A DNA stretch of 64,000 nt, from the sequence record PQ338057.1. The stretch is one strand, 5' to 3'. This DNA is from a phage. The position numbers and the translations under genes are program-made. Of this stretch, positions 6,812 to 56,752 are shown piece after piece (the stretch's first letter is position 1; each line of letters opens with the position of its first letter). Below the pieces are notes generated by a model. The model ran no database searches. It worked only from the letters and a program-made list of their open reading frames with translations, and was not told the DNA's origin.

Positions 6812-7804
6812 ATGGTGAAATCGACGTCATGTATAACCATTGATTTCATGAATATGTCGCAGCTAACTGAACGGACCTTTACGCCATCTGAATCTCTCAG
6901 CAGCCTGTCACTTTTTCTTAGTCTGGCACGTGGACAGTGTCGGCCGGGTAAATTCTGGCATCGCCGTAGTTTTCGCCAGAAATTTTTGCTGCGCTCGTTG
7001 ATTATGCCGCGTTTAAGCGTTGAGTGGATGAACGAACTTTCCCACTGGCCTAATCTCAATGTATTGTTAACGCGCCAGCCGCGACTGCCTGTGCGTCTGC
7101 ATCGCCCTTACCTTGCGGCGAATCTTAGCCGTAAGCAATTGCTGGAGGCGTTACGTTACCATTATGCGTTACTCCGCGGATGTATGTCGGCGGAAGAATT
7201 CAGCTTATATTTGAATACCCCCGGGCTGCAACTGGCGAAGCTGGAAGGCAAAAACGGCGAGCAGTTCACGCTTGAGCTGACCATGATGATCTCAATGGAT
7301 AAAGAAGGTGACAGCACAATCCTGTTCCGCAACAGCGAAGGTATTCCTCTGGCAGAGATCACGTTTACCCTGTGTGAATATCAGGGGAAAAGAACGATGT
7401 TTATTGGCGGACTGCAAGGCGCAAAATGGGAAATTCCACATCAGGAAATCCAGAATGCGACGAAAGCCTGCCACGGGCTATTTCCCAAACGCCTCGTGAT
7501 GGAAGCGGCCTGTCTGTTTGCCCAACGTTTGCAGGTAGAGCAGATTATTGCCGTCAGCAATGAAACGCATATTTACCGCAGCCTGCGTTATCGCGATAAA
7601 GAAGGCAAGATCCACGCTGATTACAACGCTTTCTGGGAATCGGTTGGCGGCGTATGTGATGCTGAACGCCATTACCGCCTTCCAGCACAGATAGCACGAA
7701 AAGAGATTGCCGAAATCGCCAGTAAAAAACGGGCTGAATACCGTCGGCGCTATGAGATGCTCGACGCTATTCAGCCACAAATGGCCACGATGTTTCGCGG
7801 TTAA
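6812..7804 (+). CDS. ybjX: YbjX (VirK-like, DUF535) protein
   Basis: 330-aa ORF at the position expected from synteny; start not verified. Confidence 0.8.
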   Translation: MVKSTSCITIDFMNMSQLTERTFTPSESLSSLSLFLSLARGQCRPGKFWHRRSFRQKFLLRSLIMPRLSVEWMNELSHWPNLNVLLTRQPRLPVRLHRPYLAANLSRKQLLEALRYHYALLRGCMSAEEFSLYLNTPGLQLAKLEGKNGEQFTLELTMMISMDKEGDSTILFRNSEGIPLAEITFTLCEYQGKRTMFIGGLQGAKWEIPHQEIQNATKACHGLFPKRLVMEAACLFAQRLQVEQIIAVSNETHIYRSLRYRDKEGKIHADYNAFWESVGGVCDAERHYRLPAQIARKEIAEIASKKRAEYRRRYEMLDAIQPQMATMFRG

Positions 7805-9459
7805 TCCGCGCGACCGCGCGCCAGCCACAGCACGCGTGAGAACATTTTTTTCAGCAGCGTCGGTACGGAGTCCACACCACGACGTCCTGCCTCCATTGCC
7901 ACTTCAATGGCAAGATCGGGTTTGGAAGAGCGATGGATCGCTTTCGAGATAATTTTGCGTAGATTCATCGGTACATTTTCCGGGATTTGCGCCATGCGGT
8001 GGAACACATCGGAAAATCCCTGGCGATACATAAAATGTTCCATATCCAGCGCCGGTAACGCCGTTAAATGTTCTCGTTCGGCTTCCCGATCGTTATTCAA
8101 CAGGCTGCGTACCGTAGCGGCATATTTCTTCCCTGCTTCATCGCCATCGACCAGTACATGCCATTCAATCCCCATTCGGCGGGCAAATTTAACCAGTGGC
8201 TTTAGCCCGGACTGGGCAAACTCAATGACCTTGATCCCTTCGGCATCAAAATGATGTCCGCACTGACGCGCCAGTTCATTGATAACCCAGGTTTCCGTTT
8301 CCCCTTCCACCAGCAACCAGCAGCGTGCAAACAGCGATGACGGACGGTTAAAACGAATGTGAAAGGATATGCGTCGGCTATCTTCGGTACTCAAGCCACT
8401 CGGCCCCAGACGCCAGGCGGCAACGCGCGAGGACTCACGTACCAGTCGGCAAACATGCTCTACCGGCGTTAACGAAAGCAACTCACCCGAGTTGGTGGTG
8501 GCAATGCGCTGCAATGGCAGAAGATTCAACAGATGCCAGGCAACTGAAAGCATAATGGGGTGTAAACGGGTTTCTGGATCTTCGATCAGCAACAATGGAC
8601 GGGCGTCTTTATCCAGTCGCAATGTGCCTTTTGCCTGCAACAAAGTAGCAAACAGGCCGAGCAAAATAACCCGATACGAGCGCCCACCAGGTCGGTCAAT
8701 CATCCGGTTGATGATATCCAGATAGCGCCAGCTTCGTTGCTCATTGCTGGCTCGCCGCCGCATTAAACGATATCGCGCCTGTCCGGCCCCCTGCTCAGAG
8801 AAATAATGCTCAAGCAGCTGTACCATTGCGGAAAGTCCCTGACGAATCTGCCCATCAGAGAGATTTTGCGGATGTGAGGATAACTCACGGGCGAGGAAAT
8901 CGAGCTGGCGCGCGGTGACTTCCACATTAGGGACATTTGGCACCGTGCCGTTACGAATACGGCGCATAAAACGGGCATCACGCAAGCGCAGCACCGGCAT
9001 TAAACGCACCAGATGGCGTGCCTGATCGTTAATATCCTCGACATCAATCGGATGTCCGTCTTTATCGAGAAAACTGCGCAGTGTCATCACGCTGCCGTCT
9101 TCCGCACTCTCCCCTTCCAGACGATAAAAAATACGGTGATAGCCATCGGTGCATGGCGTCCAGCACGCTTCCAGCGGCCGATAACGGCGAACCCGATGTC
9201 GGCCTGGCAGCGATTCGCGGAAGGTCAAAATAATATGCAGATGATGTTCTCGCCCGTTGATATCTCCCGGCGGGAACCAGAAATCGTCGCGCTCAAAATG
9301 GTAGAGATCTGATTCTGGCGATAGCAGCAGAGTTAAGGCGTCCAGCAAGCTGGATTTACCCCACGCGTTCTCCCCAATCAGGACGTTGTTTTGTTCCAGC
9401 ATCAACGACAAACGGTTGATACCGCGAAAACCCACAATTTCAACGCGCTCAAGAATCAT
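7801..9459 (-). CDS. ybjD: OLD-family-like ATPase/nuclease YbjD
   Basis: 552 aa; N-terminal P-loop GENAWGKSS; conserved synteny. Confidence 0.88.
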   Translation of the reverse strand: MILERVEIVGFRGINRLSLMLEQNNVLIGENAWGKSSLLDALTLLLSPESDLYHFERDDFWFPPGDINGREHHLHIILTFRESLPGRHRVRRYRPLEACWTPCTDGYHRIFYRLEGESAEDGSVMTLRSFLDKDGHPIDVEDINDQARHLVRLMPVLRLRDARFMRRIRNGTVPNVPNVEVTARQLDFLARELSSHPQNLSDGQIRQGLSAMVQLLEHYFSEQGAGQARYRLMRRRASNEQRSWRYLDIINRMIDRPGGRSYRVILLGLFATLLQAKGTLRLDKDARPLLLIEDPETRLHPIMLSVAWHLLNLLPLQRIATTNSGELLSLTPVEHVCRLVRESSRVAAWRLGPSGLSTEDSRRISFHIRFNRPSSLFARCWLLVEGETETWVINELARQCGHHFDAEGIKVIEFAQSGLKPLVKFARRMGIEWHVLVDGDEAGKKYAATVRSLLNNDREAEREHLTALPALDMEHFMYRQGFSDVFHRMAQIPENVPMNLRKIISKAIHRSSKPDLAIEVAMEAGRRGVDSVPTLLKKMFSRVLWLARGRAD

Positions 9460-14881: not shown

Positions 14882-16600
14882 ATGAAACAAACGGTTGCAG
14901 CTTATATCGCCAAAACACTCGAATCGGCAGGGGTGAAACGCATCTGGGGAGTCACAGGCGACTCTCTGAACGGTCTTAGTGACAGTCTTAATCGCATGGG
15001 CACCATCGAGTGGATGTCCACCCGCCACGAAGAAGTGGCGGCCTTTGCCGCTGGCGCTGAAGCACAACTTAGCGGAGAACTGGCGGTCTGTGCCGGATCG
15101 TGCGGCCCCGGCAACCTGCACTTAATCAACGGCCTGTTCGATTGCCACCGCAATCACGTTCCGGTACTGGCGATTGCCGCTCATATTCCCTCCAGCGAAA
15201 TTGGCAGCGGCTATTTCCAGGAAACCCACCCACAAGAGCTATTCCGCGAATGTAGTCACTATTGCGAGCTGGTTTCCAGCCCGGAGCAGATCCCACAAGT
15301 ACTGGCGATTGCCATGCGCAAAGCGGTGCTTAACCGTGGCGTTTCGATTGTCGTGTTACCAGGCGACGTGGCGTTAAAACCTGCGCCAGAAGGGGCAACC
15401 ATGCACTGGTATCATGCGCCACAACCAGTCGTGACGCCGGAAGAAGAAGAGTTACGCAAACTGGCGCAACTGCTGCGTTATTCCAGCAATATCGCCCTGA
15501 TGTGTGGCAGCGGCTGCGCGGGGGCGCATAAAGAGTTAGTTGAGTTTGCCGGGAAAATTAAAGCGCCTATTGTTCATGCCCTGCGCGGTAAAGAACATGT
15601 CGAATACGATAATCCGTATGATGTTGGAATGACCGGGTTAATCGGCTTCTCGTCAGGTTTCCATACCATGATGAACGCCGACACGTTAGTGCTACTCGGC
15701 ACGCAATTTCCCTACCGCGCCTTCTACCCGACCGATGCCAAAATCATTCAGATTGATATCAACCCAGCCAGCATCGGCGCTCACAGCAAGGTGGATATGG
15801 CACTGGTCGGCGATATCAAGTCGACTCTGCGTGCATTGCTTCCATTGGTGGAAGAAAAAGCCGATCGCAAGTTTCTGGATAAAGCGCTGGAAGATTACCG
15901 CGACGCCCGCAAAGGGCTGGACGATTTAGCTAAACCGAGCGAGAAAGCCATTCACCCGCAATATCTGGCGCAGCAAATTAGTCATTTTGCCGCCGATGAC
16001 GCTATTTTCACCTGTGACGTTGGTACGCCAACGGTGTGGGCGGCACGTTATCTAAAAATGAACGGCAAGCGTCGCCTGTTAGGTTCGTTTAACCACGGTT
16101 CGATGGCTAACGCCATGCCGCAGGCGCTGGGTGCGCAGGCGACAGAGCCAGAACGTCAGGTGGTCGCCATGTGCGGCGATGGCGGTTTTAGCATGTTGAT
16201 GGGCGATTTCCTCTCAGTAGTGCAGATGAAACTGCCAGTGAAAATTGTCGTCTTTAACAACAGCGTGCTGGGCTTTGTGGCGATGGAGATGAAAGCTGGT
16301 GGCTATTTGACTGACGGCACCGAACTACACGACACAAACTTTGCCCGCATTGCCGAAGCGTGCGGCATTACGGGTATCCGTGTAGAAAAAGCGTCTGAAG
16401 TTGATGAAGCCCTGCAACGCGCCTTCTCCATCGACGGTCCGGTGCTGGTGGATGTGGTGGTCGCCAAAGAAGAGTTAGCCATTCCACCGCAGATCAAACT
16501 CGAACAGGCCAAAGGATTTAGCTTGTATATGTTGCGCGCAATCATCAGCGGACGCGGCGATGAAGTGATCGAACTGGCGAAAACGAACTGGCTAAGGTAA
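14882..16600 (+). CDS. poxB: Pyruvate oxidase (ubiquinone-dependent)
   Basis: 572 aa; thiamine-diphosphate enzyme motif [11 protein letters not shown]. Confidence 0.95.
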
Positions 16601-47888: not shown

Positions 47889-49655
47889 ATGAACACCACA
47901 CTGACACCCGCAGATCTCGATCCCCGTCGGCAGGCCATGCTGCTGTACTTTCAGGGATACCGCGTAGCCCGCATTGCTGAAATGCTGGGCGAGAAAGTTG
48001 CAACCGTTCACAGCTGGAAAAAACGCGACAAGTGGGGTGACTATGGGCCGCTGGATCAGATGCAGCTCACCACCGCCGCACGCTACTGCCAGCTCATTAT
48101 GAAGGAGCACAAAGAAGGGAAAGATTTCAAAGAGATTGACCTGCTGGCGCGCCAGTCGGAGCGCCATGCGCGGATCGGCAAGTTTAACAATGGCGGCAAC
48201 GAAGCCGACTTAAACCCTAACGTCGCCAACCGCAACAAAGGCCCGCGTCGTCAGCCGGAAAAGAACGTTTTCACCGATGAACAGATTGAGAAGCTGGAAG
48301 AAATCTTCCATTCCTCCATGTTCAACTACCAGCGCCACTGGTGGGAAGCCGGAAAAACCAACCGCATCCGCAACCTGCTGAAGTCACGCCAGATCGGCGC
48401 GACCTTCTATTTTGCCCGTGAAGCCCTGATTGACGCCCTGCTAACCGGGCGTAACCAGATTTTCCTTTCCGCCAGCAAGGCACAGGCCCACGTCTTTAAG
48501 CAGTACATCATCGACTTCGCCAAAGAAGTGGAGGTGGAGCTGAAAGGCGATCCGATAGTGCTTCCTAACGGGGCCACGCTGTACTTCCTCGGCACCAATG
48601 CCCGCACGGCCCAGAGTTACCACGGCAACCTGTATCTGGATGAATATTTCTGGATACCGAAATTCCAAGAGCTGCGCAAAGTGGCTTCCGGTATGGCTAT
48701 TCACAAAAAATGGCGACAAACCTATTTTTCCACGCCATCCAGCCTGACACACAGTGCTTATCCGTTCTGGTCCGGTGCGCTGTTCAACCGTGGGCGCAAC
48801 AAAGCCGACAAGGTGGACATCGACCTGTCCCACAGCAATCTGGCCCCCGGCCTGCTGTGCACAGACGGGCAATACCGCCAGATAGTCACCGTGGAAGATG
48901 CGGTGCGCGGCGGCTGTAACCTGTTCGACCTCGACCAGCTACGCATGGAGTACAGCCCGGACGAATACCAGAACCTGCTGATGTGCGAGTTCGTGGACGA
49001 TCTCGCGTCCGTGTTCCCGCTCAGCGAGCTGCAAGCGTGCATGGTGGACAGTTGGGAAATCTGGACCGACTTTCATGCACTGGCCCTGCGCCCGTTTGGC
49101 TGGCGCGAAGTGTGGATCGGTTATGACCCGGCAAAAGGTACGCAGAACGGCGACAGTGCCGGATGCGTGGTGGTGGCACCGCCAGCCGTGCCGGGTGGTA
49201 AGTTCCGCATTCTTGAGCGTCACCAGTGGCGCGGGATGGACTTCCGCGCCCAGGCTGACGCCATCAAAAAACTGACCGAGCAGTACAACGTGACCTACAT
49301 CGGCATCGACTCGACAGGTGTCGGCCACGGGGTTTACGAGAACGTGAAAGCGTTTTTTCCAGCCGTCCGGGAGTTTGTCTACAACCCCAACGTTAAAAAC
49401 GCCCTGGTACTCAAGGCCTACGACATTATCAGTCACCGTCGTCTGGAGTTTGACGCCGGACACACCGACATAGCGCAGTCATTTATGGCAATCCGTCGCG
49501 CCACCACCGCCAGCGGCAACCGCCCAACCTATGAAGCCAGCCGCAGCGAAGAAGCCAGCCATGCCGATCTGGCCTGGGCAACAATGCACGCACTGTTTAA
49601 CGAACCGCTGCAGGGCGAGTCCGCCAATACCAGCAATATTGTGGAGATTTTTTGA
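47889..49655 (+). CDS. Terminase large (ATPase) subunit, P2 gpP-like
   Basis: 588 aa. Confidence 0.9.
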   Translation: MNTTLTPADLDPRRQAMLLYFQGYRVARIAEMLGEKVATVHSWKKRDKWGDYGPLDQMQLTTAARYCQLIMKEHKEGKDFKEIDLLARQSERHARIGKFNNGGNEADLNPNVANRNKGPRRQPEKNVFTDEQIEKLEEIFHSSMFNYQRHWWEAGKTNRIRNLLKSRQIGATFYFAREALIDALLTGRNQIFLSASKAQAHVFKQYIIDFAKEVEVELKGDPIVLPNGATLYFLGTNARTAQSYHGNLYLDEYFWIPKFQELRKVASGMAIHKKWRQTYFSTPSSLTHSAYPFWSGALFNRGRNKADKVDIDLSHSNLAPGLLCTDGQYRQIVTVEDAVRGGCNLFDLDQLRMEYSPDEYQNLLMCEFVDDLASVFPLSELQACMVDSWEIWTDFHALALRPFGWREVWIGYDPAKGTQNGDSAGCVVVAPPAVPGGKFRILERHQWRGMDFRAQADAIKKLTEQYNVTYIGIDSTGVGHGVYENVKAFFPAVREFVYNPNVKNALVLKAYDIISHRRLEFDAGHTDIAQSFMAIRRATTASGNRPTYEASRSEEASHADLAWATMHALFNEPLQGESANTSNIVEIF

Positions 49656-50680
49656 TGGGAAAGAGTAAGAAAAACCGCGCTGCGGCGACGAACCAGATCC
49701 AGCATAAAAACCAAACTTCAGCCGAAGCATTCAGCTTCGGTGATCCCGTTCCTGTTCTGGACCGCCGCGAATTACTGGACTATGTGGAATGCGTAAAGAT
49801 GGACCGCTGGTATGAGCCACCCGTAAGTTTTGACGGACTGGCGCGAACATTCCGCGCCGCCGTACACCACAGTTCACCGATTGCAGTAAAGTGCAACATT
49901 CTGACCAGCACCTACATCCCTCACCCGCTGCTCAGCCAGCAGGCGTTTTCACGTTTTGTGCAGGACTATCTGGTTTTTGGTAACGCCTACCTGGAGAAAC
50001 GCACGAACCGATTCGGTGAAGTTATCGCCCTTGAGCCTGCGCTGGCAAAATACACCCGACGCGGATTAGACCTAGATACCTACTGGTTTGTGCAATACGG
50101 CATGACCACGCAGCCGTATCAGTTCACGAAAGGCAGCATTTTTCATCTGATGGAACCGGACATCAACCAGGAGATCTACGGCCTGCCCGGCTATCTTTCT
50201 GCCATCCCATCCGCCCTGCTCAACGAGTCCGCCACGCTGTTCCGCCGAAAGTATTACATTAACGGTAGTCATGCAGGCTTCATCATGTACATGACCGATG
50301 CCGCGCAGAACCAGGAAGATGTGAACAACCTCCGCAATGCGATGAAAAGTGCCAAAGGCCCTGGCAACTTCCGCAACCTGTTTATGTACTCGCCTAATGG
50401 TAAAAAAGACGGACTTCAGATTATCCCGTTGTCAGAAGTCACAGCGAAGGATGAGTTTCTGAATATCAAGAACGTGAGCCGTGATGACATGATGGCGGCA
50501 CACCGCGTGCCGCCGCAAATGATGGGAATTATGCCTAATAATGTCGGGGGGTTTGGGGATGTGGAGAAGGCTAGCAAGGTATTCGTAAGAAACGAATTGA
50601 TGCCCCTGCAGAAACGATTGCAGGAACTAAATAACTGGTTGGACGAAGAAGTGCTCAATTTTTCAACCTATGAGCTTTAG
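49652..50680 (+). CDS. Portal protein, P2 gpQ-like
   Basis: 342 aa; overlaps P stop. Confidence 0.9.
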   Translation: MMGKSKKNRAAATNQIQHKNQTSAEAFSFGDPVPVLDRRELLDYVECVKMDRWYEPPVSFDGLARTFRAAVHHSSPIAVKCNILTSTYIPHPLLSQQAFSRFVQDYLVFGNAYLEKRTNRFGEVIALEPALAKYTRRGLDLDTYWFVQYGMTTQPYQFTKGSIFHLMEPDINQEIYGLPGYLSAIPSALLNESATLFRRKYYINGSHAGFIMYMTDAAQNQEDVNNLRNAMKSAKGPGNFRNLFMYSPNGKKDGLQIIPLSEVTAKDEFLNIKNVSRDDMMAAHRVPPQMMGIMPNNVGGFGDVEKASKVFVRNELMPLQKRLQELNNWLDEEVLNFSTYEL

Positions 50681-50688
50681 TTTTAAAA

Positions 50689-50716
50689 CGAAGACCATTA
50701 GGTCTTCGCTTTATTT
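50689..50716. terminator. Hairpin between convergent portal and retron RT genes
   Basis: cgaagacc-atta-ggtcttcg followed by ctttattt. Confidence 0.45.
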
Positions 50717-51660
50717 AAAGGGTTCTTTCCATATTTTTTTTCTAATTTGCTAATATAAGTTATTAATCTCCTATGGCTTTTTGAATCCACACTTAAAATA
50801 AATGACAACCATCCCCTAACGTGTTCTATCTCAGAAGACTTACCGCAAAATATATGATGTATCTTTGCTCTAATTTCTTTATATTTTTCTCTACCTATCC
50901 CAACTTTCTCTTGTGAAATAACTAAACCTGTAACTTTCCTCTGACTACGAGGCCCACTAATACAAGTTTTTTTTGAGTTAATAACCAATCCTTCACTTGG
51001 GATTATAGAAAATAAAAAATCACGTGCTTTAACAACCTTTTTCATAGACTGTGCAGATAAGGTGAGATCATCGGCATATCTCGTATATATCAAGCCCCGA
51101 CTACCTGCATAACCCTGAATACGATAATCAAGTTTAGAACATATTAGATTAGCTAATTTAGGTGATGATGGAGCACCTTGTGGTAGCAGATTTTTATAAC
51201 AACATATTTTTGTCAAAACTGAAGATATTAGTCGATTATAACCAAGAGAATGGAACACTCCAAAAACTTTGTTAGCAGTTAAACTTGGGAAAAAATCCTC
51301 CAAATCAATATTCAGTATAAAGTTTGCCCCAATATGCGGGGTAGCATTATTCAAAATAGATTGGTGCTTTTCAAATCCAATAGAAAAAGGAGATGACGAC
51401 AGTTTATCTAAAATGTTACGTAGAACCCATCCTTGTAAGGCTTTAAGTTCTCGAGAAGGTTGGTAAATGGTTCTCATTCTCTTCTCTGGGCCTTTCTTTT
51501 CTACAGTGTAGATCCTATAGCGAAAATCAGCTGTATAGATTAACAACCGAAGTGTTTCAACAGATATGCGAGTCGCCTTAGACATGTCATGCAAATTGTT
51601 CATGACAGGTAGGCCGAGATTTCTCAATCTAAAAGTGTTCAAATATTCAGCGGATTTCAT
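50698..51660 (-). CDS. ret: Retron-type reverse transcriptase
   Basis: 320 aa; motifs NATPH (NAxxH), YADD, VTG; AT-rich; ncRNA immediately upstream; from memory matches the Ec86/Eco1 RT. Confidence 0.95.
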   Translation of the reverse strand: MKSAEYLNTFRLRNLGLPVMNNLHDMSKATRISVETLRLLIYTADFRYRIYTVEKKGPEKRMRTIYQPSRELKALQGWVLRNILDKLSSSPFSIGFEKHQSILNNATPHIGANFILNIDLEDFFPSLTANKVFGVFHSLGYNRLISSVLTKICCYKNLLPQGAPSSPKLANLICSKLDYRIQGYAGSRGLIYTRYADDLTLSAQSMKKVVKARDFLFSIIPSEGLVINSKKTCISGPRSQRKVTGLVISQEKVGIGREKYKEIRAKIHHIFCGKSSEIEHVRGWLSFILSVDSKSHRRLITYISKLEKKYGKNPLNKAKT

Positions 51661-51666
51661 GAAAGT

Positions 51667-51836
51667 TGCGCACCCTTACGTCAGAAAAAACGGGTTTCCT
51701 GGTTGGCTCGGAGAGCATCAGGCGATGCTCTCCGTTCCAACAAGGAAAACAGACAGTAACTCAGATTCAATGCAGGATGCCGAAACAACATCCAGAGGTT
51801 GACCTTAATGATAAACCTCTCGCTAAGGGTGCGCAT
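51667..51836 (-). ncRNA. msr-msd: Retron msr-msd non-coding RNA
   Basis: 12-nt terminal inverted repeats tgcgcaccctta (51667-51678) and taagggtgcgca (51824-51835); long internal hairpin; ends 7 nt before the RT start. Confidence 0.85.
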
Positions 51837-52746
51837 ACGGAATCTTATCATAGTTAAATGTTGATTTTCTACGGTTTTCAAAATTCATAATCTCAAGCCG
51901 CAATCGGTCAAGTGTCTTTCTATCAAAGACGCTCCTAACATAGCTAGCCCCCAAAGCAGTGACCTGATAACCATCAGTCATTTGAAGTATTTTTCGTTCA
52001 TTTATTAGACGAGAAACAACGGATCTAACAATAATTTTAGATAAAACATCATCTTGCTTTATCGCTTTAAAAGCTAGTTCACACAGTGTGCGGTAGTTGA
52101 CACTATCCAGTAAATAGATACAAGGCAATAGAAACCGCTCTGCGTATAATATATTTCCAATATCTTTTGATACTTTATTTTCTTTCCTAACCTTCTTAAT
52201 AGATGCCATTAATTTTTTATATAATCGTAATTTTCTGGCAACATCAATAGATGAATCACACATTTCTTTTAGTTCATTTGAACTACAACGCAAAACAGAT
52301 TTTGAATTAAACTTACGCAACAGGCGAACAGGACCATAGTTAATAAAGCTACGTTTTGATTTAAATTTTGCATCTTGAATGCAAATCAACTTTCTCCTTA
52401 AGTTTTCATTATTAGAGAACGCACCAAGCTCTGTGAAAGACCCCGGACTTTCAGGAAATAAAATTATTACATCGACAGCTTCAGCCAGAATATTTTCTAA
52501 ACTTAAAAGGCTATGCTGCCCTTGACCAGCCAAAAGATCATCAAATAGATCTTCTGGATAAAATATATCAACATCACTGAACTTTGCTAAAAATTGTGAT
52601 AATTGATGACGCCAAGATTGATGATTAGCAACGTCACCACCACATAGAAAAATGGTTATTTTAATATTAGCTCCTCGATAGAAGCCTTTCTTTGTGAGAT
52701 GTCCTATAAGCTGTTGTTGCTGCTCATCGGTAAATTTTTTATTCAT
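51823..52746 (-). CDS. Retron effector (predicted nucleoside-deoxyribosyltransferase-like N-glycosidase with C-terminal DNA-binding region)
   Basis: 307 aa, AT-rich; first gene of the retron operon with its 3' end overlapping the msr start; Rossmann-like N-terminus KITIFLCGG. Confidence 0.75.
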   Translation of the reverse strand: MNKKFTDEQQQQLIGHLTKKGFYRGANIKITIFLCGGDVANHQSWRHQLSQFLAKFSDVDIFYPEDLFDDLLAGQGQHSLLSLENILAEAVDVIILFPESPGSFTELGAFSNNENLRRKLICIQDAKFKSKRSFINYGPVRLLRKFNSKSVLRCSSNELKEMCDSSIDVARKLRLYKKLMASIKKVRKENKVSKDIGNILYAERFLLPCIYLLDSVNYRTLCELAFKAIKQDDVLSKIIVRSVVSRLINERKILQMTDGYQVTALGASYVRSVFDRKTLDRLRLEIMNFENRRKSTFNYDKIPYAHP

Positions 52747-52821
52747 AATCTCCCCGCTTTTTTTTCTACTTTATACATCAAGTTATGAATAGATCCAATC
52801 TCCATACCACATGGCGCGCGC

Positions 52822-52840
52822 TCGTATCCCCGCCACGCCT
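52822..52840. other. Possible cos (cohesive-end) remnant
   Basis: Reverse strand reads GGCGTGGCGGGGA, matching the first 13 nt of the 186/P2 19-nt cos as I recall it. Confidence 0.3.
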
Positions 52841-53218
52841 GCCCGCTTTATGCAGTGGTTTTCATGCACATGCATAACATGAGCAAAAGCCCGCCAGTTC
52901 TGGCGGATCTGAGCAAAGACGATCCTCAATCGATCATGCGATTTCATGCAGCATAGTCATGCACTGTCAAGGAAGTGAAAATCCGTATCTGAATGGCCAC
53001 TTGAAAAACGGATCATACGGGTTTACAAAGATGAATGTTCGCTGTGAACGGGAAGCGGAAGTTAACTTTCAGATAACATAATCCATATGCACGAGAACCT
53101 CTAAAATAGAATGGGACACCTAAGCGGGGTACTTACAACGATTCTTTCCATATTCACAGTTAACACTCTGTTTGGCGTATTTTTATTCAAATAGCAAACA
53201 CCAATAAAAGGAGTTTCC

Positions 53219-53554
53219 ATGAACAATATTCCCCCTATACCACAGTTAGGAATTTATGTCTCAAAAATCGATCCCACCCTACGTATCACTGTAACCGATG
53301 TTGATATTGTTGATGGTGAGGATGATTCTCCTGATGATGAATTGTTTTATTTAGTCCACTGGATCGAGGGGGAAGATGAAAGTGATATGACAGCAATGGG
53401 ATTTGAGCTAGACCCAGTAGAGTGGCAGGCTTTCGTTGAATCTGAGCAATTAGTGTTTGAGCGTGATCCGTACATGGATTCAATCCCCGAAAATTCAAAC
53501 TTGGCAAAGATTCGGGATTTTCTCATGAAGACTAAACAGAATGATCATTCGTAA
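53219..53554 (+). CDS. Small highly acidic protein of unknown function
   Basis: 111 aa; strong SD aaaaggag; D/E-rich runs DGEDDSPDDE and EGEDESD; accessory locus. Confidence 0.5.
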   Translation: MNNIPPIPQLGIYVSKIDPTLRITVTDVDIVDGEDDSPDDELFYLVHWIEGEDESDMTAMGFELDPVEWQAFVESEQLVFERDPYMDSIPENSNLAKIRDFLMKTKQNDHS

Positions 53555-53746
53555 GTGTAAGCATCCATCAGGAAAATGGTTTTGTAAGTGAATCATCAAC
53601 TTTTAGAGAGTCTCAGACACTCCCACTTCTGCTTCTGACACAAAGCGGACGATCACTTATCAAAATAACCGCCCACCTTACGCCTTATTTCACTCATTGC
53701 CCAAACTAGCCCCCATCAGAATGAATCCTCCTGGGGGCAACATTTC

Positions 53747-53981
53747 TTAATGCAGCCAGCTGTCGTCCTCCCACACCTTCTGCATAATTTTCATCACTTG
53801 TTTTCTTTCTTCATCCAGTTGCAGTCCGGTTAGTTCCACACCGTTAGAGCTACCTTTGCGAATGCGAATTACCGTTTTGGGATACAGGGGGCGCAGATTG
53901 CGGTAAAGCTCGGATTCAAGGGCGTCCAGGGTAGACTGGCTAATCTTCTGCTCTTTATCGATCATTATTTCAATGCGCATA
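53747..53981 (-). CDS. DinI-family protein (Tum C-terminal-domain-like)
   Basis: 78 aa from MRIEIMIDKE; DinI-like pattern ending WEDDSWL; SD gaggtgac; downstream of the SOS box. Confidence 0.7.
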
Positions 53982-53990
53982 AAAGTCACC

Positions 53991-54179
53991 TCAGCTGATG
54001 ACATCCATTGAGCGGTTGTATTCGTGGCTTCTGATTTTTGCCATGAGTTCATCAGTCAATTCAGAAACCCACTGCAGAGCCAGCCCCTTCTCTTCATCAC
54101 TACACTCACTAGCCGCTACAAGCTTAAGAAAAAAATCAATGCGCTGGAGCTTCAAAGACTCCAAAAAATAGTCCTGCAT
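53991..54179 (-). CDS. Small protein, first gene after the SOS box (Tum N-terminal-like?)
   Basis: 62-aa ORF; function unknown. Confidence 0.4.
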   Translation of the reverse strand: MQDYFLESLKLQRIDFFLKLVAASECSDEEKGLALQWVSELTDELMAKIRSHEYNRSMDVIS

Positions 54180-54221
54180 CTTTCCTCCTATGACACCAAA
54201 ACAATACTGTATACATAACCA

Positions 54222-54237
54222 CTGTTTATATTTACAG
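54222..54237. promoter_or_regulatory. LexA (SOS) box
   Basis: ctgtttatatttacag = CTGT-(AT-rich)8-ACAG consensus, about 45 bp upstream of the 54179 start. Confidence 0.6.
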
Positions 54238-54331
54238 TATATAATAATCTTACTGATGTAAAACGTTTTTTTACGTTCATCGGCCTGATATGCCTGGTAT
54301 TATTAAGAGCACGAATTGTCAACCCGCGTAA

Positions 54332-56752
54332 TTAATACAGGTTCCGCCACTTATCATCTTCCTTCAGACGCTGGTTCCGATAGAAGATACGCAGGCCTGC
54401 TCCTGACGGAATACTGCCGCCGCGAAGGAGCAAATCGACTTCTTTCTCGCTGCCATCAAATCCCCTGGACTTCAGTTCATAGACGAGCTGCTGTCGCTGA
54501 TGGTCTGTAATTCGCTGTTTGTAGTCTTTACGCCGTTTCGGTTTCACCTGGCGTAACCTTGCAGCCAGTTCCCGGCGCTCTTTTTTGCTCATACTGTGCA
54601 GGTAATTGTGCAACTCCTTGTCATTCATACGGGTAATATCCGTTCTGGAGTCCCCATCAGCTGATTTGTCTTTCCCTTGTTGGTTCAAATTTTCAGCAAG
54701 GGGACAGTTATTGCCACGAGTCCAAGGGGCGCAAGCGCCCTGGTCGGCTGCCGCCTCCTGAACGTCAACGGCCTTACGAACCATTTTCCACTTCACCGCA
54801 TGAGTGCAGATCTTGCCCTCTGCAATGGGTGACCAGATGCCATAAATACGAATACCGTGATCGCCATATGCGGTCGGTTCTTCGTTGATTTCATAAGCAG
54901 TTCTGATGAGGTGATATTTGCGGGGAACCAGTACGCCGCCCTGCTTCATGATGTAGGTGGCAAAACAACCAGCATCAGCAGCAGCCAGGATTGCATCAAG
55001 ACGCGGGTTATCCAGTACCGGCGCACCTGCTTTTTTGTCACCCTGTTGCCTTGCCGCCTGACCAGCCAGCAATCGCAGTTCACGGTAAGCCTGACGCCCC
55101 GGAATGCCAAAGAAGCGGAATTGCTGAACACGATGCAGAGACGCCCAGGCATTAACGTATTCAGCGTTATCACGCAGGGATTTACCCGTTTCCTTGCTGA
55201 TCTCCCCAGCCAGACCACGCCCGTCAATGTTCTTACTGATGTATTTCGCGATATAGCTTGTTGGCGTACCTTTGCGCGGGTTTATCAGCTCAGACTTAAA
55301 GCGTGGTCCCGTGTTATTGCCCAGCTCCTCGCGGTCTTCACGGATGGCAAACTTACGCAGTAATGCAGTGATGGCGCGGCGGTCTTTTTTACGCATGAAA
55401 CACATGAGATGCCAGTGCACAGTACCGTCATGATGCGGCTCAGCTACCCGCACGCCATACCAGCGCAACTCGGCTTTATGCATAGCCTTACGAAATGCAG
55501 CAAACATGCCGACCAGATAATCGCTACTTTGTCTTACCGTCGCGTTTGTCCAGGTCGGGTTTGGTCTGCCGTTATTGAGCGTGGAATGGAAACGCGACGG
55601 ACAGGTGATAGTGTAGAAAACGGCACAGTCACTGCGCATTTCCGCGATAAGCTCCAGACCTTTAACACAGGCCATCATCTCATTGCGGCGATGCGCCGGG
55701 TTGCTGCTGCTGGCGTTTACCACATCTTCCATATCCAGCGTGTCGCCGTCTTCGTTCACCAGTTCATGAGAACGAAAAAACTCCAGCGACTTACGGCGCT
55801 GCTCACGTTTATGCATCACGGCTTCATAGCTGACATAGGGGGATGCTTTTTTGCTGACCAGGCAGACAGCACGCAACTGCTCTTCCCGCCATTCGCAACG
55901 CATCTTCCATAATTTCCGATACCACCAGTCGGCACACAACATACGCGCCAGCGAACCCGGGATGAGTTCATAGAGCACTGGTTTGCGGCGGTTTATTTTC
56001 CGACGAAGTTTCTCAAACGCAGGCGGGATAACATCCAGACGCAGGGTTTCCGCTGCCACCTTTTCCCATGTCTTGCGGATTTCTTCTGGCTTAACGTCAT
56101 CGGTGGCATACAAATCACCACAAGCGTCCTCAAGACACATGCTCATATGCGCTGCTACCAGGGTGGACAGGCGTTTCACCTGATCCTGGCTCATTTCAGG
56201 CAGGATCAGCAGACCCTCCAGCCCTTGATGGCTTGCCATAAAACGGAAAGAAACAGATAGCTGACTGTCACGTACACAATCCAGTCGCTCCAGACATGGC
56301 TTAATCGTCTCACGCAAATAGCGGGAATAAGCCTTTGGCCTGCCCAGGCTGCTGAAGTATTCAATACGTTGCATCAGCGGCTTGCTGATATGGGAAGGCT
56401 GGGCGTTTACGTCCGCCAGAATGACCATGTCCGGATTAAAACGCTGCTGCTCATGCGCCAGCTTTGCCCGGCTAATGAGCTTATCCTGCTCCATTTCGCG
56501 CTGGACAGGATCACGGGATTCATTAAAGAAATAACGCTCCCAGACCTGCTCACTCAGTGCCTCGCGGCGCAGTTGTTCCTGCTCGTTATCGGCAGCGTAC
56601 AGAGTGATCAGGTTTGAAAGTGCAGACTCCGGCGCAACTTCCGCCGGGTCCAGATAAGGGTTAATGGCCTTTTTCGAGCCGTTCCATGAAAATGCTGCGG
56701 CGGCCTCGTTAAAGCCGCTGCAATAGTTCATATCGTCATGACTCATACACAC
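54332..56752 (-). CDS. Rolling-circle replication initiator (P2 gpA-like HUH endonuclease)
   Basis: 806 aa; HWH motif (TVHWHLM) and paired Tyr (SYIAKYISK). Confidence 0.88.

Follow-up and report, generated by a model that had tools for sequence, protein, structure and literature searches.

A small acidic DUF8087 protein encoded as optional cargo beside cos in a 186/P2-like prophage with retron Ec86

What is a gene for a strongly acidic protein of 111 amino acids doing next to the cos site of a retron-bearing prophage? The question is raised by a 64-kb stretch of phage DNA (64,000 nucleotides, record PQ338057.1, hereafter the window), which is a 186/P2-like prophage carrying retron Ec86 (Eco1, type II-A). 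The retron lies on one side of cos and the acidic gene, a member of family DUF8087, on the other. The cos-adjacent hotspot of P2-like prophages has already been mined for defence systems. A literature search for DUF8087 and for the protein accession WP_001059831 gave no paper mentioning either. In Rousset et al. 2022 (PMC9122126), WP_001059831 appears only as 'hypothetical' in the table of P2 hotspot loci, and arrangements consisting solely of proteins below 120 aa were discarded by design. Hence, the DUF8087 gene is catalogued but unstudied. As shown below, it is a cargo of its own, located across cos from the retron where P2 has its classical old-tin operon, and it travels as a 550-bp cassette. 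The product almost certainly plays a role in the conflicts between mobile elements, phages and hosts.

A constrained gene for a small acidic protein

The open reading frame (ORF) starts with the ATG at 53219, its stop codon ends at 53554 on the plus strand, and a strong Shine-Dalgarno sequence (AGGAG, 53209-53213) precedes the start codon with a spacing of 5 nt. The product contains 26 aspartate and glutamate residues for only 7 lysine and arginine residues, giving a net charge of -19 and a computed isoelectric point of ~ 4.05. Two dense acidic runs are found, DGEDDSPDDE at residues 32-41 and EGEDESD at residues 50-56. A first-pass annotation, made from the letters of the window alone, had described a strongly acidic ORF of this length with a strong ribosome-binding site and the same two runs; its coordinates, the charge and both runs were confirmed. 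Ten copies of the gene were compared in pairs and display dN/dS ratios from 0.06 to 0.42, mostly around 0.2, which corresponds to purifying constraint. Given these low ratios, the existence of 61 homologous clusters and the presence of the gene in 214 E. coli genomes, it is firmly established that the ORF is a real gene under constraint, far beyond a chance ORF.

The exact protein is WP_001059831 of E. coli BL21(DE3), REL606, C and W, labelled 'hypothetical protein' or, in newer records, 'DUF8087 domain-containing protein', the latter being its RefSeq name. Precomputed annotation places it in Pfam family PF26332 (DUF8087) in eight loci, together with all 61 homologous clusters (50-98% identity), and it matches PHROG 17127, of the function-unknown category, over its entire length (E = 2e-70, all 111 residues aligned to the 111 profile positions). 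No match to a functional family was obtained in a local copy of Pfam-A, in NCBIfam or in PADLOC; the local Pfam-A copy lacked the PF26332 model, so that hmmscan could not return DUF8087 there. Likewise, the protein shows no similarity to the Imm families of Pfam, and neither a catalytic motif, a DNA-binding motif nor a transmembrane segment was found in it. The first-pass annotation had recognised no family and had proposed sensitive profile searches. These searches do recover a family, DUF8087/PHROG 17127, and the earlier statement therefore stands only in so far as no family with a known function is concerned; no functional lead came out of them.

An exhaustive hidden Markov model search through 1.84 billion protein representatives yielded 35 relatives, all small and acidic, with no tie to any characterised family, and a word-indexed profile search gave 88 clusters. 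The net charge lies between -8 and -22 in 39 out of 39 aligned members, and the acidity is kept down to ~ 30% identity. The conserved core spans about 70 residues, among which P8, G11 and W69 are invariant and Y13, V25, V46, E63 and L78 nearly so, while D53, D56, E63 and E68 are conserved acidic positions. The first acidic run, DGEDDSPDDE, lies in a variable-length loop that is missing in several distant members, and all members are acidic nonetheless. Some distant members (P0072, P0074, P0075, P0079 and P0086) carry in addition a basic N-terminal extension of about 20 residues, MGQAK(N/S/R)RG...R(I/V)AQA, preceding the acidic core.

Two AlphaFold runs, with pLDDT (predicted local distance difference test) values of 74.6 and 77.6, display one common topology, and the five models of the run with the more diverse alignment range from 68 to 78. 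Strands are predicted at residues 11-15, 22-31, 43-50, 60-64 and 78-82 and helices at 66-75, 84-87 and 94-108. The predicted fold class is a small SH3-like five-stranded barrel with one helix following strand 4 and another at the C-terminus, in which the acidic runs are placed in the loops between strands 2 and 3 and between strands 3 and 4. Foldseek searches against PDB and BFVD returned nothing significant and the family profile had no match among PDB sequences at E <= 10. DUF1653 and small SH3/Tudor-like barrels (PDB 3be3, FeoA, the CarD N-terminal domain) came up with marginal scores and 8-13% sequence identity; a Pfam match to DUF1653, which itself has no known function, was not obtained at E <= 1. 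Neither sequence nor fold similarity was seen to Ocr, ArdA or any solved DNA mimic. The acidic protein can be grouped with the small, acidic, inhibitor-like cargo proteins of mobile elements, its predicted fold being unseen among known mimics.

An optional cargo gene beyond cos, independent of the retron

In P2-like prophages the 100%-identical protein is found adjoining retron Ec86, Ec67-like reverse transcriptase fusions of 586-646 aa, a retron system made of a reverse transcriptase, an ATPase and a 222-aa protein, GmrSD, or a 561-aa AAA_21 ATPase; a 2-residue variant has GmrSD as its neighbour every time. Because the identical protein adjoins at least five different cargos, it is firmly established that the acidic gene is independent of the retron and of the neighbouring systems. 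One could still picture the product as an accessory subunit or regulator of retron Ec86, or of whatever defence system lies across cos, given the physical closeness and the fact that a retron reverse transcriptase accompanies the identical protein in five of its eight distinct contexts. However, the retron types differ between these contexts, GmrSD or the AAA_21 ATPase takes their place in the others, and cos separates the gene from the cargo. Furthermore, islands, integrative and conjugative elements (ICEs) and a lambdoid prophage contain relatives without any retron nearby, another relative stands alone in a chromosome, and a type II-A retron is defined by its reverse transcriptase, non-coding RNA and NDT effector only, a set that is already complete here. 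This role is largely refuted by the context and we regard it as most improbable. The acidic gene was thus rejected as a partner of Ec86, on account of the differing retron types and the contexts with GmrSD or without a retron.

When the window is compared by BLAST with loci holding other cargos, homology ends at ~ 50650, near the end of gene Q, and restarts at 52811-52814, a few bases from cos. Therefore, the space from Q to cos is the slot taken by the retron, with the acidic gene located beyond cos; the retron slot abuts cos directly and cargo is present on both sides of it. The cohesive-end equivalent GGCGTGGCGGGGATACGAG aligns with P2 cosL/cosR GGCGAGGCGGGGAAAGCAC and, with its flank, is identical to the circularised P2 cosR/cosL junction at 48 of 64 positions (75%, E = 7e-9). 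With 5 mismatches to the P2 cos pattern, the site escaped a search tolerating at most 3; it was recognised on inspection of the sequence and by alignment of the P2 ends. Conservation of the flank at 52814-52965 extends to Fels-2, SopEPhi and numerous P2-like phages of Klebsiella and Yersinia. The start codon of the acidic gene is 379 bp from cos, and the gene, the nearest to one cos end, points away from cos, inward.

Two related prophages (L039 and L040) have nothing in the slot between cos and the DinI-like gene, which is occupied by a DUF6236 gene in a third (L041) and by a 243-aa gene in Fels-2; 1394 E. coli genomes possess the cos flank, as against 214 with the acidic gene. It is hence firmly established that the gene is optional cargo (a 'moron') in the slot equivalent to old-tin, between cos and the DinI-like gene. 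The old-tin operon, one of the morons of the P2 TO region, has the same position and orientation; its transcript starts 150-170 bp from cosR and runs inward. Like the acidic gene, it is a non-essential cargo located on the stretch from cos to the side of replication gene A, and its start is a few hundred bp away from the cohesive end. Both positions fall within the cos-adjacent hotspot of P2-like phages (PMC9122126). The products are unlike, since Old is an ABC-ATPase/TOPRIM nuclease and Tin has 253 aa, compared to an acidic barrel of 111 aa without sequence or domain similarity to either. In another E. coli P2-like prophage (L038, 4358-5495) the cos-DinI slot contains an RNase A-like domain protein followed by a CDI immunity protein, i.e. 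a toxin-immunity pair.

These comparisons also bear on what the first-pass annotation had said of the surroundings. An accessory gene in an accessory locus is what the empty or differently filled slots of close relatives display, the adjoining cos-like motif is the site aligned above, and the gene does run opposite to the retron and the SOS module, as the retron genes and the DinI-like operon are all on the minus strand. In contrast, its proposal of a regulator of the neighbouring system is not supported, as the same protein occurs with many cargos, its relatives are retron-free and the retron is complete without it.

Outside P2-like prophages the DNA homology is confined to 53041/53098-53590, at 85-88% identity, and covers the ORF, ~ 120-180 bp upstream and 36 bp downstream. 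The non-P2 copies aligned were those of Morganella, Serratia, Symbiopectobacterium, Lonsdalea, Proteus and E. coli ECONIH1. This cassette of ~ 550 bp recurs in elements of five other genera, and from such sequence comparison the acidic gene can firmly be taken as a horizontally mobile cassette moving among integrative elements. Its upstream region has a mean column identity of 85% in an alignment of seven sequences and includes an imperfect inverted repeat, CACAGT..ACTCTG, at ~ 53155-53172; its 3' tail has a weak predicted hairpin followed by a T-run and nothing stronger. An identical or near-identical gene was found in 214 of 5426 complete E. coli genomes, about 132 E. coli genomes having it in a P2 context. 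A scan of species-representative genomes gave only 4 loci, none of 50,697 GenBank phage records has the gene, and the single hit among 72,556 plasmids is a circular P2-like element.

The carriers of the gene are listed in Table 1. In Morganella it comes after a 1169-aa helicase-PLD gene, and in Symbiopectobacterium it is followed by an orphan Imm42 immunity gene. The Klebsiella and Enterobacter prophages are integrated at tRNA-Leu(taa) next to pgsA, and the position of the gene within them falls in the integrase-primase interval that a 2026 survey describes as a minor P2 defence hotspot (PMC13586616). The Pantoea copy, 33% identical to the window protein and 38% to the Klebsiella copy, lies at the same tRNA-Leu used for integration by the Klebsiella prophage, with no integrase or phage genes within 8 kb.

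Some of these positions could be those of a regulator of the element's own life cycle, either antirepressor-like or modulating integrase or excision. Indeed, in the Klebsiella and Enterobacter prophages the gene belongs to a repressor-integrase operon and its stop codon overlaps the int start codon; in two distant small elements it is divergent from an AlpA-like/GPA replicase operon, a typical regulatory position; and in the window it is convergent with the SOS-controlled orf62/DinI-like (TumA/TumB-like) operon. However, one and the same cassette (85-90% identity) serves elements with unrelated repressors and integrases, the gene is optional among near-identical P2-like prophages, as shown by the empty slots, and it survives without any element in Pantoea and Serratia. 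Moreover, no LexA box was found upstream of it, the sole box of the region (54222-54237) preceding the convergent orf62/DinI-like operon. Such a regulatory function is decidedly unlikely. For the same lack of an own LexA box, and because it is a convergent transcription unit, the acidic gene was rejected as part of the DinI/Tum-like SOS module.

Several of the carriers show features of their own. The Flk_N-domain protein of the Klebsiella and Enterobacter prophages (211-215 aa) is another uncharacterised passenger of the lysogeny operon. In an ECONIH1-type island (L002, 7538-7921) and in the Edwardsiella prophage (L033, 7529-7912) the acidic gene is followed, at equal spacing, by a gene for a 127-aa protein with an N-terminal hydrophobic segment and no Pfam match, which may be an optional second gene of the cassette. 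The two small elements L021 and L037 share one layout, namely an integrase, a gene of ~ 300 aa, DUF8087, then the divergent operon of AlpA-like and GPA-like replicase genes, and differ in their defence cargo: one has a TIR-AAA-TPR (TIR-NLR) protein and the other Gabija, a BglII/MT-A70 restriction-modification (RM) system and a SMEK-domain protein. They may represent an undescribed satellite-like element type.

Possible functions of the acidic protein

The explanation that we favour, with a probability of about 40% and slightly more weight than anti-defence, is a function of the resident element in which the protein acts as an acidic decoy protecting the lysogen. The gene, an autonomous mobile cargo, would be expressed from the integrated element, and its product would be a small cytoplasmic SH3-like barrel with acidic loops and a C-terminal helix. 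The acidic surface would imitate nucleic acid and, by stoichiometric binding, neutralise a basic DNA- or RNA-binding protein of foreign origin, either one made by a superinfecting phage or a toxin of the nuclease type. The lysogen would thereby be protected, as it is by old and tin. Here we infer the decoy mechanism, that the lysogen expresses the gene, and what the target would be; a stoichiometric decoy is the simplest mechanism given the absence of an enzymatic motif together with the conserved negative charge.

A function in the resident state is favoured for four reasons: both slots of P2-like prophages otherwise hold defence or lysogenic-conversion genes, the Klebsiella/Enterobacter copy shares an operon with the immunity repressor, the gene is missing from free phages and, bar one, from plasmids, and the diverged Pantoea copy has been kept without any element. 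Furthermore, the neighbours of the gene elsewhere are defence or immunity genes, as seen with Imm42, the Mrr-like nuclease, DUF4365-TPR, Gabija with the RM system, TIR-NLR and the helicase-rich island.

As a small acidic inhibitor-like protein, the product also resembles the immunity proteins of nucleases (colicin Im, barstar, CdiI, Imm families), and further links are the toxin-CDI immunity pair present in the same slot of L038 and the Imm42 neighbour in Symbiopectobacterium. It differs from them in having no Pfam Imm similarity and in its gene context. A classical cognate immunity protein is disfavoured because, in about 20 distinct contexts, the acidic gene is never directly downstream of a toxin gene.

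Several observations weigh against the decoy explanation. No toxin gene was found directly upstream of the acidic gene in about 20 distinct contexts, and the protein, having no match in PADLOC, is not a known defence protein. We know of little precedent for a soluble, acidic, stand-alone exclusion factor of 111 aa. A strict sigma-70 scan upstream of the gene found no promoter and a relaxed scan gave only weak candidates, the best being TTCACA-19-TATTTT at 53153-53183; for these reasons no promoter is claimed. The AlphaFold models are of moderate confidence only. Finally, the presence of the gene in many types of element, including some ICEs and islands with ArdB/KlcA-type genes nearby, fits anti-defence equally well.

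According to this latter explanation, which was the idea of the first-pass annotation, the protein would be an acidic inhibitor resembling a DNA mimic, made on entry or on induction, and would block nuclease-type immunity of the host, for example restriction. The acidity of the whole family is in line with it, as is the variety of unrelated carriers (P2-like and lambdoid prophages, ICEs, CP4-57-like islands and small GPA/int elements). In Morganella and Proteus an ArdB/KlcA-type antirestriction gene is only a few kb from the acidic gene and in Edwardsiella the gene sits in the early-left region after recT. The strong ribosome-binding site and the position nearest to one end of the virion DNA, 379 bp from cos, count in its favour as well; which P2 DNA end enters the cell first was not found in the literature searched and no argument is built on it. 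The known DNA mimics (T7 Ocr, ArdA, T4 Arn, T7 gp5.9 and Ugi) share with the acidic protein a small size, a cytoplasmic location, a very acidic composition and the lack of enzymatic motifs, and are encoded by mobile elements too. However, Ocr and ArdA are largely helical dimers, compared to the SH3-like barrel predicted here, and the acidic protein has no sequence or fold similarity to known DNA mimics or anti-restriction families. Its gene is absent from the phage records and the conjugative plasmids that were searched, the very places in which genes of this kind are usually plentiful, and the site in the repressor-int operon of Klebsiella and Enterobacter and the diverged copy kept alone in the Pantoea chromosome also count against anti-defence. 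Known anti-defence genes are moreover rare in P2-like prophages, with 28 out of 1511 (PMC13586616). On balance, anti-defence is less likely than not, and only slightly less probable than the lysogen-protecting decoy.

Some other, unanticipated role is unlikely; the protein might for instance bind RNA polymerase or a nucleoid protein and favour the expression of AT-rich cargo. It can be suggested, quite tentatively, that DUF8087 is the founding member of a new family of mobile-element proteins, electrostatic mimics built on an SH3-like barrel and directed against a nuclease-type immune effector or the DNA-binding protein of an invader. Such a mimic could serve as a broad counter-defence factor or as a one-gene protective decoy. 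If an inhibitor with a new fold is indeed at work, it would add one more family to the counter-defence or decoy repertoire. As BL21(DE3), REL606 and E. coli C and W all have the gene, any phenotype would matter for phage studies and retron engineering done with these strains; in BL21(DE3) it stands directly beside Ec86, a retron used in genome engineering.

Features of the window and carriers of the gene

The features of the window are collected in Table 1 together with the carriers of DUF8087 genes.

Table 1. Coordinates of features around the acidic gene in the window, followed by the elements and loci in which other DUF8087 genes are found (positions in the lower part are those of the locus named).
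Feature	Position	Strand	Remarks
Terminase gene P	47889-49655		
Portal gene Q	49652-50680		
Variable cargo slot, Q to cos	50650-52811	-	Holds retron Ec86; breakpoints from BLAST of the window against related loci
Retron reverse transcriptase (RT)	50698-51660	-	320 aa
Ec86 msr/msd	~51690-51835	-	Between NDT effector and RT
NDT effector	51823-52746	-	307 aa
cos site	52821-52839	-	19-nt cohesive-end equivalent GGCGTGGCGGGGATACGAG; from alignment to P2 cos ends
Upstream region of the cassette, conserved	53041-53218	+	DNA homology to non-P2 copies begins at 53041-53098
Acidic-protein coding sequence	53219-53554	+	111 aa; DUF8087 / PF26332, PHROG 17127; identical to WP_001059831
3' tail of the cassette, conserved	53555-53590	+	Homology to copies in other elements stops at 53590
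GC-rich hairpin	53709-53738	.	GCCCCCA..16 nt..TGGGGGC; fold of 53690-53760 = -17.3 kcal/mol
DinI-like gene	53747-53980/54052	-	
62-aa ORF (orf62)	53991-54179	-	
LexA box, perfect	54222-54237		CTGTTTATATTTACAG; precedes the 62-aa ORF and the DinI-like gene
Replication gene A	54332-56752	-	
Dam methylase gene	beyond replication gene A	-	
Morganella, Proteus			CP4-57-like islands with DUF932, an ArdB/KlcA-type antirestriction gene and a GTPase
Lonsdalea, Symbiopectobacterium			ICE-like regions with type IV secretion genes; neighbours DUF4365-TPR, Mrr-like protein, Imm42 immunity gene
Edwardsiella			Lambdoid prophage, early-left region after recT
Xenorhabdus			Beside an inovirus
Serratia			Small chromosomal islet
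E. coli ECONIH1-type			40-kb helicase-rich island; 80 genomes, 90% variant
Klebsiella aerogenes, Enterobacter kobei (L025-L029, L031-L032)	~6900-8330		P2-like prophages; repressor, Flk_N-domain gene, DUF8087, integrase
Nitrosospira and one metagenomic contig (L021, L037)			Small integrative elements; DUF8087 30-40% identical to the window protein
Pantoea (L022)	8001-8309		Lone DUF8087 copy, 330 bp from tRNA-Leu(taa), beside pgsA-uvrC; at least six contigs alike

The DinI-like SOS operon (53747-54179, minus strand) is convergent with the acidic gene, and with its 62-aa ORF it looks like a split SOS-inducible module of the TumA/TumB type, as annotated in Fels-2 and PSP3. The GC-rich hairpin is found just after the stop codon of the DinI-like gene, between the convergent genes and outside the cassette, and no T-run accompanies it on either strand; it is possibly the terminator of the SOS operon. 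An Rfam search of 50600-54400 returned no RNA family, and at the msr/msd no family was obtained even at E <= 1. A spurious 66-aa ORF (51681-51881) overlaps the msr/msd, and its translation contains MRTLSERFIIKVNLWMLFRHPALNLSY, which we take to be the translation of the Ec86 msr sequence. In E. coli relatives (L008, L009, L013 and L014, ~ 15200-16336), a large, defence-like gene that varies between loci (SNIPE/T5orf172, an AAA_15 ATPase or a KAP NTPase) directly follows the CI repressor gene, and this position marks a further cargo hotspot of the lysogeny operon.

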